A stretch of DNA of 37,563 bases from an uncultured Lachnospiraceae bacterium (GTDB taxonomy: Bacteria; Bacillota; Clostridia; TANB77; CAG-508): the NCBI GenBank assembly GCA_964563525.1, contig CAZLWI010000002.1, positions 1-37,563 on the forward strand, written 5' to 3'. Positions 26,819-29,341 of this stretch are shown here, in pieces; positions within the stretch are counted from its first letter, which is position 1; each line of letters begins with the position of its first letter. Position numbers and translations under genes: made by a program. The notes beneath the pieces were generated by a model, which searched no databases, had not been told where the DNA came from, and saw only the letters and a list, made by a program, of their open reading frames with translations.

Positions 26819-27541
26819 ATGAAATCTAGCAATATAAATAATGATAAAGATAAGATAATAAAAAGAAAAAGATTTAATTTTAAAAAAATATTAATCTATT
26901 TAATAATTACTTTTTTTGTATTGCTTCTTTTATATAATAATATTTATCTTTTATCTGGAACTAGTTTAAATACAAATAGAAAGAATAATATTTTTAATAT
27001 TAAACTATATTTAGTAGAAAACAATATGATGGAAGATACATTGAAAAAGGGAAATATTGCTGTTATTAGTACTAAAACTATAGAATATAATATAGACGAT
27101 ATAATATTATTTAGAGATCAATCTGGTATAAAATTAGAGAGAATAGTAGAAATTATTAATAGTAATACAAATATAGATGAAAAGAAATATATTACCAAAT
27201 CAGATAATTCATATTATTTAAATCACTTTGAAATAGAAGAAGATATGATTATAGGTAAATATAGATATAAAATATTAGGATTATCAATTTTACTCAAAAT
27301 AGCAAGATCTCGTATTACAACTATTATATTTATATTAGTATTAATTACAATGCTAATAATATTATTTCAAATTAGACTATATAAACCTAGAAGAGGTAAG
27401 GGTGTAAAGGAAGATGAATTATTAAAAAAGAGACTAGATGCTTTTATTAATAAAGATGAAGAACAAATAAAGGGTAAACATAGTAGAAAAATACAAAGAG
27501 ATAGACTTAGAAGAAAATTAGAAAAAAAGAATAAAAGTTAA
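26819..27541 (+). CDS. SipW-like pseudo-peptidase (catalytic Ser and His both replaced)
   Basis: It has the same two-TM topology and box order as SipW. The Ser box reads ENNMMEDTLKKGNIAVIS, the His box reads KLERIVEI, and the third box reads TKSDNS. Confidence 0.65.
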   Translation: MKSSNINNDKDKIIKRKRFNFKKILIYLIITFFVLLLLYNNIYLLSGTSLNTNRKNNIFNIKLYLVENNMMEDTLKKGNIAVISTKTIEYNIDDIILFRDQSGIKLERIVEIINSNTNIDEKKYITKSDNSYYLNHFEIEEDMIIGKYRYKILGLSILLKIARSRITTIIFILVLITMLIILFQIRLYKPRRGKGVKEDELLKKRLDAFINKDEEQIKGKHSRKIQRDRLRRKLEKKNKS

Positions 27542-28557
27542 AAATTAAACATATCATTTTTACTTGTTTTTAAAGGTGGTATCTTATAAATAATATCAAA
27601 GAAATAAAAATCCTCTAATTCGTCATATTCTAAACATGATAGATAAACATCAAGTTGATTTAAATTATCACAAGATGAGATAATAGCTGGATGTAGTGCT
27701 GAATTAAAGAAACATTCAAAAGCTAAATCCAATGCACCTTTAAAAGACATATTCTCTCTATCTTTTGCTAATTTATATGCTTCTCTAAATCTTGCCACAG
27801 GTGCATTTCTGTAATATTTAATAGGTTTTGTAAATATTTTATCAATAACATCATATACATCTGTATATTTATCAGGATTAGCTTTTAAGATATTATTTAG
27901 CTTTTTATATGTATAAGGTAGTATTACATGACTTTCTTGTTCAGATATTATTAAAGTATTTTCAGATAATTCTCTATGTCTTACAATATCGGGATCTAAA
28001 ATATTAGAATTTAATTTTAATTGAGCCATTTCTTGTTCATGTTGAATTCTTTCATCAGCTTGAATTCCTTCAGAAATTTCAACCAATTTTTCTTCAATTG
28101 AATTTGTGTTTTCTTTAATTTGAATAACATTCTGAAACTCAGGAGTAGATTCCTTTAAAAATGTTTCGATTTCAGTAGTATTAATCAATATCTGACTATT
28201 ATTTTCACCATAAATTAAATTATATTTATCTATTTCTTCTACGATTTCTTTTAAAGTTAAATCTAGTACAGCATCATTTAAAGAAGTAATATTTTGATAT
28301 ATTATCTCATATGCATTAATATTTTTATTTGATTTTTCTAGAATATCATTAACCTTATTAGACTTTAGAAGATAAAGCTCCATGTTTTTAGCATCATTAT
28401 TTATATCAATATCAGTAGCTAATTCTTTAAAATATTTTAAAACTTGTGTAGATAGATTTTTTTGCATGTTAAGAGAAGAATTAATAAAATCTAACTCTTT
28501 TTTTATACTTTCTAGTATCTTCTTTTTTGAATTATCATCTTTAGTTAAAATTATCAA
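27538..28557 (-). CDS. hypothetical cytoplasmic helical protein (339 aa) on the opposite strand inside the locus
   Basis: The start is TTG at 28557 with a GAGGAA RBS. The ORF is long and the sense strand has no competing ORF. The C-terminal third (PVARFREAYKLAKDRENMSFKGALDLAFECFFNSALHPAIISSC) looks like a globular domain. I recognised no family. Confidence 0.6.
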   Translation of the reverse strand: MIILTKDDNSKKKILESIKKELDFINSSLNMQKNLSTQVLKYFKELATDIDINNDAKNMELYLLKSNKVNDILEKSNKNINAYEIIYQNITSLNDAVLDLTLKEIVEEIDKYNLIYGENNSQILINTTEIETFLKESTPEFQNVIQIKENTNSIEEKLVEISEGIQADERIQHEQEMAQLKLNSNILDPDIVRHRELSENTLIISEQESHVILPYTYKKLNNILKANPDKYTDVYDVIDKIFTKPIKYYRNAPVARFREAYKLAKDRENMSFKGALDLAFECFFNSALHPAIISSCDNLNQLDVYLSCLEYDELEDFYFFDIIYKIPPLKTSKNDMFNF

Positions 28558-28587
28558 AATTTCCTCAACATAGCTATAGATAATAAT

Positions 28588-28616
28588 ATTATATCAAAGA
28601 GAAAATATCTTAAAAA
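28588..28616 (-). promoter_or_regulatory. possible extended -10 promoter for the minus-strand gene
   Basis: The minus strand reads TGaTATAAT (plus-strand 28588-28596) with a weak -35 (TTTTTA) 17 nt upstream. It lies about 20 nt upstream of the RBS. Confidence 0.3.
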
Positions 28617-28688
28617 GGAAGCATTTTAAATGTAATACAAATCTAATAAATTTGTATTAAAGAATTAAAGAAAAAAAACAAGTTTTAA

Positions 28689-28717
28689 TTGATAAATAAA
28701 AATCCTTATGATATATT
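28689..28717 (+). promoter_or_regulatory. sigma-A-type promoter (TTGATA-17 nt-TATATT, extended TG) for the 28790 operon
   Basis: TTGATA is at 28689-28694, the spacer is 17 nt, and TGaTATATT ends at 28717. AATTGATAAA-N10-TATGATATATTTTAT is shared with 14403-14437. Confidence 0.5.
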
Positions 28718-28789
28718 TTATTTAAGCAGAAAATATAATATATCTTTAAAATGATATATTATGTGAATGTATTTTTGTAGGAGAAAATT

Positions 28790-29341
28790 ATGAAGATAAT
28801 AAAAAACATATTAATAGTGATTTATTTGATTATAGCAATATTTGCAACAGTTTGCTTAATATCAACAAATCAATACAAAGTAACTGAATTAGGGGAATAT
28901 ACTTTTGTTTATGTAGATAAACATACAAATTCAGATACTTTTTCTAAAGGTGATCTTGCTATAGTGAGTTCAGATTTTAAAACAAAAGTAGGAGATGAGA
29001 TTTTTTTCTATAATGCTTATGAAAAGAATATTCACCCAACTGTTGCAAAAATAGTAGCAGAAGAAGTAATAGTTGCGGATAAAGAAGTTACATATACTTT
29101 AGATAATGAAAAACAAATATCAAGTCAATTTGTAATTGGAAAAGTTGATGAGTCTACACGAATTCCATATGTAGGAAGTGCAATGCGAATAATACAATCA
29201 AAATGGGGATTTTTATTCCTAATTGTTTTACCTGTATTAATTGCATTTATTTATGAAATATATACTATTATTATTGAAGTTAGATCAAATAAAGTAAAAG
29301 TAAAATCAGAAACTAAAACAGAAAATAGTGATGATAAATAA
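28790..29341 (+). CDS. SipW-like pseudo-peptidase 2 (degenerate catalytic boxes)
   Basis: There is an AGGAG RBS. It has TM1 and TM2 like SipW. The Ser-box region reads DKHTNSDTFSKGDLAIVS, the His-box region reads HPTVAKIVAEE, and the third box reads YTLDNEKQISSQFVIGKV. Confidence 0.55.
   Translation: MKIIKNILIVIYLIIAIFATVCLISTNQYKVTELGEYTFVYVDKHTNSDTFSKGDLAIVSSDFKTKVGDEIFFYNAYEKNIHPTVAKIVAEEVIVADKEVTYTLDNEKQISSQFVIGKVDESTRIPYVGSAMRIIQSKWGFLFLIVLPVLIAFIYEIYTIIIEVRSNKVKVKSETKTENSDDK

Follow-up and report, generated by a model that had tools for sequence, protein, structure and literature searches.

Why should a bacterial gene cluster that encodes three signal peptidases of the SipW type also keep two paralogs that lack the catalytic residues? 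The question is raised by a 37,563-nucleotide (nt) stretch of DNA from an uncultured Lachnospiraceae bacterium (assembly GCA_964563525.1, contig CAZLWI010000002.1), the whole of which we call the window. Its five SipW paralogs, c1 to c5 in gene order, were assigned to the endoplasmic reticulum (ER)-type peptidase subfamily S26B. A preliminary description, made from the sequence alone, had singled out c2 and c3 as pseudo-peptidases retained in the operon; both open reading frames (ORFs) are present on the forward strand, with the motifs quoted there (Table 1). We propose that c2 and c3 are probably pseudo-peptidases from the ER-type S26B line, kept by selection as membrane scaffolds or assembly factors, and that the two differ greatly in age and distribution.

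The descent of the five proteins was assessed with family models and profiles. The model TIGR02228 (ER/archaeal-type signal peptidase I), which has a curated cut-off of 51.85 bits, recognised all three active-type copies (86 bits for c1, 72.5 for c4 and 89 for c5). It matched c2 at 35.6 bits (E = 7.5e-9), under the cut-off, and did not match c3, for which the Bacillus SipW model NF046067 gave a full-length match (E = 7.9e-9). Searched as single proteins against Pfam, c2 showed only a sub-threshold match to Peptidase_S26 and c3 showed none. When a profile was iterated across 84 related loci, starting from the active copies, it retrieved c3 (E = 1e-40) as well as c2 (E = 7e-28), and profile-profile comparison matched c3 to c2 and the active copies with a probability of 98.5%. 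Both proteins are therefore homologues of the active enzymes beside them.

The catalytic triad that is essential in Bacillus subtilis SipW consists of Ser47, His87 and Asp106 (PMC8767453). The Ser, His and GDNN motif of c1 line up with those of human SEC11A/C. At the nucleophile column of the profile alignment, c1, c4 and c5 carry Ser, c2 carries Met and c3 Thr; at the general-base column the active copies have His, c2 has Glu, and c3 has Pro or Ala, depending on the placement of a one-residue gap; at the invariant Asp column, which lies six residues past the GDNN Asp (+6), the active copies have Asp, c2 Asn and c3 Glu. The Ser, the His and the +6 Asp are invariant among related c4 (82/82) and c5 (69/69) proteins. 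Among 22 ORFs with c1 as their best match, the +6 Asp is likewise invariant, and Ser and His are found in 20; the other two, in the related loci L032 and L036, are second copies at the gene position of c2 that have been inactivated. Because most c5 proteins (49 of the 69) have replaced the GDNN Asp by Ile yet keep the +6 Asp, the later Asp is supported as the essential one. Unlike SipW, which needs all three residues, c2 and c3 are on these alignments S26B homologues without the Ser, the His and the invariant Asp.

We considered whether this loss could be an artefact. Contigs assembled independently from public sequencing runs of three studies cover c2 and c3 with 0–2 differences and no insertions or deletions; since the independent runs reproduce the substitutions, these are real, and sequencing or assembly error was rejected as their source. 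An alternative alignment that would restore the dyad was also rejected, since the family does not conserve the Lys (TVAKIV) that adjoins the His column in c3. No alignment placed a Ser/His dyad in c2, in c3 or in their relatives, in agreement with the loss of both residues described earlier.

Structure prediction supported the further claim that the SipW fold and its two-helix topology are kept. The AlphaFold2 model of c3, built on 38 homologues, has a mean predicted local distance difference test (pLDDT) value of 87.4 and contains an N-terminal transmembrane (TM) helix (residues 2–24), a beta domain and a long C-terminal helix (138–181). Its top PDB matches in Foldseek were human SEC11A and SEC11C (probability 1.0), followed by LexA, lambda cI and UmuD, with Streptococcus pyogenes SipA at rank 13. 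The c2 model, obtained from a shallow alignment, has a mean pLDDT of 73.2 (80–90 in the core), with helices at residues 21–46 and 165–187 and the beta domain between them; SEC11C/A were again its top matches (E = 3.7e-5, template-modelling score 0.61), and SipA ranked third. The sequence of c2 has a basic N-terminal tail and two TM helices. As far as the models tell, c2 and c3 are S26B homologues by fold, but every catalytic feature by which members of the subfamily are recognised is missing from them.

The c3 protein turned out to represent an old and widespread family. A word-indexed protein search returned 44 relatives (32–76% identity, about 165–200 amino acids), none of which had a Pfam match or a Ser/His dyad. 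A profile search over 1.84 billion representatives gave at least 112 clusters (50% identity) at E = 1e-30 or better, and among the best 149 representatives at 50% identity none has Ser and His together. Of 83 orthologues, 4 have Ser in the nucleophile column, none has His in the base column, and 40 have Asp in the +6 column (Glu in the window). The family has no Pfam match and only sub-threshold NCBIfam matches, and its members are labelled 'hypothetical protein'. When the search was limited to one genome per species, 124 genomes contained c3, nearly all of them metagenome-assembled genomes (MAGs) of uncultured gut, rumen or digester organisms named 'Clostridia bacterium', including Clostridium sp. 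CAG:780 and Candidatus Scatovivens. In the 80 loci that were read, the gene order c3, T204, c4, T198, T318, p364, nucleoside triphosphatase (NTPase), DUF2357, c5, T211, in which the T genes encode secreted proteins, recurs with few exceptions. The locus is conserved as about 15 genes, with c3 at the same position in at least 80 species-level genomes, and c3 is an ancient and universally conserved component of it.

We next compared selection on c3 with that on its active neighbours, using pairwise Nei-Gojobori estimates of the ratio of nonsynonymous to synonymous substitution rates (dN/dS) for species pairs at 75% identity or more. The median for c3 is 0.108 (46 pairs), compared with 0.107 for c1 (8 pairs), 0.143 for c4 (41 pairs) and 0.132 for c5 (43 pairs); other genes of the locus range from 0.09 to 0.18. 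Thus, c3 is as constrained as the active enzymes. Its ORF is intact in the full-length loci read (in L017 it is cut by the contig end), and the signs of decay that we looked for there, namely stops, frameshifts or a dN/dS near 1, were not encountered.

The conservation of c3 lies in a different part of the molecule from that of the active paralogs. We scored conservation in bits per column for c3, c4 and c5 over the same 68 species, and obtained overall means of 2.73, 2.71 and 2.92 bits, respectively. In boxes B, D and E, c3 reaches 2.3, 2.0 and 2.1 bits, as against 3.3, 3.5 and 3.5 in c4 and 3.4, 3.4 and 3.15 in c5. The order is reversed in TM1, with 3.2 bits in c3, 2.3 in c4 and 2.7 in c5, and in the juxtamembrane segment with TM2 (3.6, 2.2 and 2.7 bits). 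Relative to the active enzymes, c3 is lower by 1.0–1.4 bits per column in the three boxes and higher by 0.9–1.4 in the two membrane regions. Its catalytic columns have only 1.6–2.5 bits, the nucleophile column being at 1.6, and the structural boxes KGDLxIV and GDxIFFY are equally conserved in all three proteins. By sequence, therefore, the level of conservation in c3 is that of the active paralogs and its distribution is inverted.

The invariant or nearly invariant residues of c3 are glycines together with polar and aromatic residues of the membrane interface, i.e., Thr, Cys and Asn at the outer end of TM1, the ESKWGFLF segment and the Pro of TM2; the only invariant polar residues lie at that interface. 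Most c3 orthologues retain an x-L-x-P remnant of the S-M-x-P box, which the clade of the window has lost (HTNSD), and the cytoplasmic tail is short and unconserved in most species, the window included. Because overall conservation is equal but has shifted to the membrane helices, the function of c3 points to these helices rather than to the old substrate groove. The suggestion of the preliminary description that the pseudo-peptidases hold substrates through a retained groove is thus not favoured for c3, in which the cleft strands are the least and the membrane helices the most conserved parts.

A sub-group of c3 proteins is much longer, at 300–400 amino acids (L037, L039, L043, L048, L056, L061, L063, L067, L069, L074, L075, L079, L080 and L082). 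The additional sequence is a cytoplasmic, Glu/Lys-rich, low-complexity tail of 150–220 residues, which ends in two or three EEKKALIEAKLKSMT repeats. In most of these genomes, L043 excepted, the product of the adjoining divergent gene rev339 also grows, from about 330 to 1000–1500 amino acids.

The c2 protein has a very different distribution. The word-indexed search found 4 relatives, then 7 with a profile query, and there are about 8 protein clusters in all. Every member of the clade has Met, Val or Thr at the nucleophile column, Glu or Gln at the base column and Asn at the Asp position, and the clade has motifs of its own (LYNNIYxFS, DQSGxKLERI, QIRLYxPxR and a cytoplasmic KHSRKxQKE). The c2 slot, between c1 and rev339, varies in content among related lineages: it is empty in L001, L024 and L028, is occupied by a paralog with intact Ser/His in L010, L014, L015, L022 and L023, and contains a paralog with Ser replaced by Glu in L019, by Leu in L021 and L032, or with Thr and Lys in L036. 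In a crude neighbour-joining tree, intact second copies intermingle with inactivated ones, which implies several independent losses of catalysis; the clade of the window c2 sits on a long branch, so that its exact orthology to the other slot paralogs is uncertain. The probable parent of the slot is c1. Across the wider group, c2 is dispensable and occupies a slot in which catalysis has been lost repeatedly.

Within its clade, c2 is nevertheless still under selection, because its dN/dS is 0.26–0.48 and the bootstrap intervals exclude 1 (upper limits no higher than 0.69), at dS values of 0.55–1.07 that are close to saturation. Values for these genome pairs are 0.31–0.51 in the active c4 and c5 and 0.07–0.24 in c3. 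The claim that both copies are maintained rather than decaying is hence upheld by intact orthologues and purifying selection. The joint loss of the catalytic residues stands as well, but c2 and c3 are not equivalents: c3 is ancient and universal, while c2 is rare and dispensable.

How might a protein such as c3 act? We suggest that its two TM helices and the ESKWGFLF...P collar, on the outer side of the membrane, dock a partner within it. This partner could be an active SipW paralog, a T-protein signal anchor or the McrB-like NTPase of the locus, itself anchored in the membrane. The extracytoplasmic domain, no longer catalytic, would serve as a structural module. Without itself cutting the T proteins, c3 could in this way organise their processing and assembly or set the timing of both. 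In turn, c2, the younger and lineage-specific copy, probably assists or modulates c1 and the giant protein that is its substrate. We infer for both proteins that they are inactive, bind partners and take part in assembly. Some indication as to the partners came from a mirror-tree analysis corrected with three cytoplasmic proteins of the locus, in which species pairs were treated as independent. The T proteins covary among themselves (partial r 0.37–0.76), and c3 gives partial r values of 0.44 with c5, 0.26 with c4 and 0.19 with T204, which is weak evidence and no more than suggestive of a preference of c3 for these two active paralogs over the T proteins.

Several points weigh against the proposal that c2 and c3 are selected scaffolds or assembly factors. 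The empty c2 slots of L001, L024 and L028 show that related loci can do without c2. In two lineages, the c2 sequence ahead of TM1 contains none of the start codons ATG, GTG and TTG (L004:883-1132, L086:2525-2804 and L087:5722-6001), although the frame stays open for 50–93 codons in genomes of 25% GC, and as a result gene callers give an N-terminally truncated c2 (e.g., P0051). This suggests either a non-canonical start or the onset of decay, and fits a weak or fading function. About half of the c2 clade has Thr at the nucleophile column, and there are the 4 c3 orthologues of 83 with Ser; formally, some members of either group may thus retain activity or use an unconventional chemistry. The role of the locus as a fibre builder is putative; the matches of the T proteins to models of the TasA superfamily are faint. 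The covariation signal that links c3 to c5 and c4 is weak and uncorrected for the non-independence of species pairs.

A more far-reaching version, which we consider rather unlikely, is that c3 is an obligatory non-catalytic core subunit of a hetero-oligomeric SipW complex, a prokaryotic counterpart of the eukaryotic signal peptidase complex (SPC) built from inactivated paralogs. Such a complex would sit inside a surface-structure assembly machine, not previously described and widespread in uncultured small-genome Clostridia, whose parts would be the three active SipWs, the T subunits, the giant adhesin-like protein and the McrB-like NTPase with DUF2357.

Equally doubtful in our view is a chaperone role of the SipA type, in which the old cleft of c3 and/or c2 would bind a particular secreted subunit by its signal peptide or N-terminal strand and leave it uncut. 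T204 would be the client of c3, held so as to stop premature polymerisation or to anchor the base subunit. The idea has a precedent in SipA, which lacks Ser and Lys, keeps its cleft and is essential for pilus polymerisation, and SipA was among the structural matches of both proteins. However, the SipA cleft is almost entirely conserved, whereas boxes B and D of c3 are its least conserved parts (2.0–2.3 bits as against 3.3–3.5 in c4 and c5); the x-L-x-P remnant in most c3 orthologues would speak for a cleft still in use, but the clade of the window has lost even the L-x-P. T204 lies directly 3' of c3 in nearly every full-length related locus (exceptions L076 and L077), as might be expected of a client, but the core of its signal peptide is not conserved, unlike the expectation for a retained anchor, and its rate covariation with c3 is low. 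For c2, in whose clade the box-D region (DQSGxKLERI) is well conserved among only 8 sequences, a cleft chaperone is plausible; for c3 the relaxed cleft strands disfavour it.

It appears improbable that the two copies are regulators or decoys, signalling through their charged cytoplasmic tails or competing with the active SipWs for precursors and thereby timing the processing. B. subtilis SipW does have a regulatory role that is independent of its peptidase activity and needs the cytoplasmic C-terminal 20 residues (PMC8767453), and the conserved cytoplasmic KHSRKxQKE of the c2 clade and the long Glu/Lys-rich tails with EEKKALIEAKLKSMT repeats in several c3 lineages could be read in the same sense, together with the conserved, divergently oriented gene for the cytoplasmic rev339 next to c3, which lengthens in the same lineages. 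Against this, the tail is short and unconserved in most c3 proteins, including that of the window; searches of the tails and of rev339 found no DNA-binding or signalling domain; and a decoy would need a conserved cleft, which c3 does not have.

That the copies are decaying pseudogenes, an idea more plausible for c2, which is rare, missing from related loci, faster-evolving than c1 and c3 and in two lineages devoid of a canonical start codon, or else enzymes still active through unconventional residues, such as the Thr in half of the c2 clade or the invariant Ser-Lys pair of the c3 ESKWGF segment, is highly improbable, since c3 combines intact ORFs in full-length loci with a dN/dS of 0.108 and invariant motifs, c2 has dN/dS intervals that exclude 1, conserved clade motifs and frames open over 50–93 codons at 25% GC, across the c3 family the extracytoplasmic domain has no polar residue conserved enough to replace Ser/His or form an alternative active site, and the Ser and Lys of c3 are neighbours in sequence where TM2 begins, a long way from the former active site.

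Among known systems, the closest functional analogue of c2 and c3 is SipA/LepA of the S. pyogenes FCT pilus islands (PDB 4n31), a signal-peptidase homologue without Ser/Lys that serves in assembly rather than in cleavage and is essential for pilus polymerisation by a mechanism that is not established. Like SipA, c2 and c3 have lost the catalytic residues, kept the fold and sit in a surface-protein gene cluster. SipA, however, derives from the P-type subfamily S26A (Ser/Lys), and c2 and c3 from the ER-type S26B (Ser/His/Asp). A class B sortase and LPXTG pilins are the partners of SipA; no sortase family was matched among the locus proteins scanned or in the gene content of related loci, and LPXTG motifs in the T proteins were not searched. 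The peptide cleft of SipA is described as 'almost entirely conserved', whereas conservation in c3, judged on sequence columns, has relaxed in the cleft strands and is high in the TM helices, and SipW-type proteins have a second, C-terminal TM helix. Given their ER-type descent, the absence of a sortase-family match in the locus and the lack of a conserved cleft in c3, c2 and c3 fall outside the SipA family.

With SipW of the B. subtilis tapA-sipW-tasA operon and with Sec11, c2 and c3 share the subfamily, the N- and C-terminal TM topology and, in the case of SipW, an operon with secreted proteins, as well as the existence of a peptidase-independent role through a cytoplasmic tail in SipW itself. 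They differ in that tapA-sipW-tasA has a single enzyme, whereas the loci studied here have three active and one or two dead paralogs, and in that the secreted neighbours here have no TasA/camelysin Pfam match, save for 1 of the 23 T204 members (E = 0.012). Recent work on the TasA-superfamily loci AbpA, AbpX and Tafi describes dedicated signal peptidases together with non-homologous accessory proteins (DUF5305), and mentions no inactivated peptidase paralogs. SPC subunits and the DUF5305 'SPase I accessory' proteins resemble c2 and c3 as non-catalytic membrane partners associated with an ER-type signal peptidase; they are not peptidase homologues, however, whereas c2 and c3 are inactivated peptidase paralogs. 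iRhoms are membrane-embedded inactive rhomboids that recognise the transmembrane segments of their clients, as was shown experimentally, and recognition of this kind matches the shift of constraint in c3 to the TM helices. The iRhoms belong to an unrelated fold and family and are eukaryotic, and for c3 the binding of a client would be a prediction. Full-text literature searches found no paper on inactive SipW/Sec11 homologues. The earlier remark that no precedent was known for dead S26B peptidases in a bacterial fibre locus accordingly stands as far as these searches go, but streptococcal SipA provides one in the sister subfamily S26A.

The c3 family would be a second, independent case of a dead signal peptidase, on the ER-type branch; SipA is the only characterised one. 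Scaffolding pseudoenzymes are well known from eukaryotes, but much less is documented about them in bacteria. With at least 112 clusters at 50% identity from more than 100 species, the c3 family offers a large natural sample, its conservation signature locates the putative new function in the membrane helices and the ESKWGF collar, and the active paralogs of the same locus provide internal controls. The repeated losses in the c2 slot also make it possible to trace how an enzyme turns into a pseudoenzyme. Finally, c3 marks a conserved, uncharacterised secretion or surface-structure locus in abundant Clostridia of gut, rumen and digester.

The window is chromosomal DNA of about 25% GC, with the housekeeping genes radA, tyrS and ftsY upstream of the locus. 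From 17.7 kb to the window end it forms a single co-oriented, tightly packed gene set, in the order giant protein, c1, c2, rev339 (divergent), c3, T204, c4, T198, T318, p364, NTPase, DUF2357, c5, T211 (Table 1). An AGGAG ribosome-binding site lies 7 nt upstream of c3. A promoter scan gave promoter-like sites no more numerous than expected by chance, and a terminator scan found none; the public sequencing runs that contain the sequence are DNA metagenomes only. The organism occurs in digester and wastewater samples.

Table 1. Positions and main features of the genes of the locus in the window.
Feature	Position	Strand	Remarks
Giant repeat-rich secreted protein	17717..26123	+	heads the locus; two ORFs here, 1699 + 1107 amino acids
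c1, active-type SipW paralog, Ser/His/Asp intact	26130..26780	+	directly downstream of the giant surface protein
c2, SipW-like paralog, predicted catalytically dead, 240 amino acids	26819..27541	+	alignments, SEC11-like model, dN/dS
rev339, cytoplasmic, 339 amino acids, function not assigned	27538..28557	-	divergently transcribed
c3, SipW-like paralog, predicted catalytically dead, 183 amino acids	28790..29341	+	founding member of an unannotated family
T204, secreted beta-rich protein	29365..29979	+	signal-peptide end T-Y-[AS]-x-F; T211 paralog
c4, active-type SipW paralog, Ser/His/Asp intact	29969..30592	+	overlaps T204 end and T198 start
T198 and T318, two further secreted proteins	30537..32107	+	evolutionary rates covary with T204 and T211
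p364 (364 amino acids); membrane-anchored McrB-like P-loop NTPase; DUF2357 protein	32118..35895	+	between T318 and c5; conserved locus members
c5, active-type SipW paralog, Ser/His/+6 Asp intact	35906..36904	+	GDNN Asp replaced by Ile; 150-residue acidic N-terminal extension
T211, secreted protein downstream of c5	36891..37526	+	signal-peptide end N-T-Y-A-W-F

The preliminary description had called the secreted neighbours 'TasA-like'. Searches with 23-member alignments against PDB profiles, Pfam and NCBIfam gave faint matches only: the T211 profile matched AbpX at E = 0.39, and the single T204 member mentioned above matched Peptidase_M73 (TasA/camelysin). The likeness therefore survives as faint sequence matches, with no firmer one found in these searches. 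T204 and T211 are homologous to each other (hhalign 96.7%, E = 3.8e-10) and share the signal-peptide end T-Y-A-x-F, which we take to resemble SipW-dependent signal peptides. None of the four T proteins (29365–32107 and 36891–37526) belongs to a Pfam or NCBIfam family. They have in common conserved W, PGM and W...E..(D/N)..DT..G motifs, which might bind metal.

The McrB-like NTPase, the DUF2357 protein and p364 are invariant members of the locus and its most conserved genes (L001-L083). The P-loop NTPase shows a weak resemblance to McrB (E = 0.003, PDB), has an N-terminal TM segment and is accompanied by the DUF2357 gene; a McrBC-like pair beside a secretion or surface-structure cluster is an unexpected association. 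The TM helix of the NTPase was considered as a conserved intramembrane partner and found unsupported, its conservation being moderate (2.85 bits). In the window, the NTPase gene is split into ORFs of 366 and 151 amino acids (33231–34746, junction near 34321), while relatives have a single protein of 506–518 amino acids. The window lacks about 22–23 nt encoding KVYDRAMP at the split (34291–34331), and contigs of the same strain from independent runs read on past 34321 with AGTTTATGACCGTGCTATGCCA, which suggests that the split arose in the assembly of the window and is no genuine frameshift.

The giant gene is also interrupted, by overlapping ORFs in different frames (GIANT_A with its stop at 22816 and GIANT_B with its start at 22800), where several relatives have a single ORF of about 2500–2930 amino acids. 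Four independent assemblies from three studies match the window exactly at 22780–22830, so that this frameshift appears real; the gene may have become a pseudogene, its GGxN repeats may undergo phase variation, or the frameshift may be programmed. Fragmented versions also occur in L003, L005, L021 and L032.

The acidic N-terminal cytoplasmic extension of c5, of about 150 residues, is confined to the clade of the window and absent from other lineages. In most of the loci with enough upstream sequence, rev339 separates the c1/c2 slot from c3; it attains 1000–1500 amino acids in some lineages and is replaced or absent in L034/L041/L053 and in the group of L052/L057. In the more remote loci L076 and L077 (Bacilli/Bacillales MAGs) and L068, the active c4 is fused into a protein of 375–662 amino acids and the order of the T genes differs; these loci may be informative variants of the system. 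Upstream of the locus, radA (3502–4864) is split into an 86-amino-acid zinc-finger ORF and a 363-amino-acid ATPase ORF, with a change of frame near 'ELDRVL'. A 534-amino-acid, coiled-coil-like ORF (14576–16180) also precedes the locus; its homologue adjoins the giant protein or c3 in the distant loci L034, L041, L053 and L077, and the protein may belong to the system.

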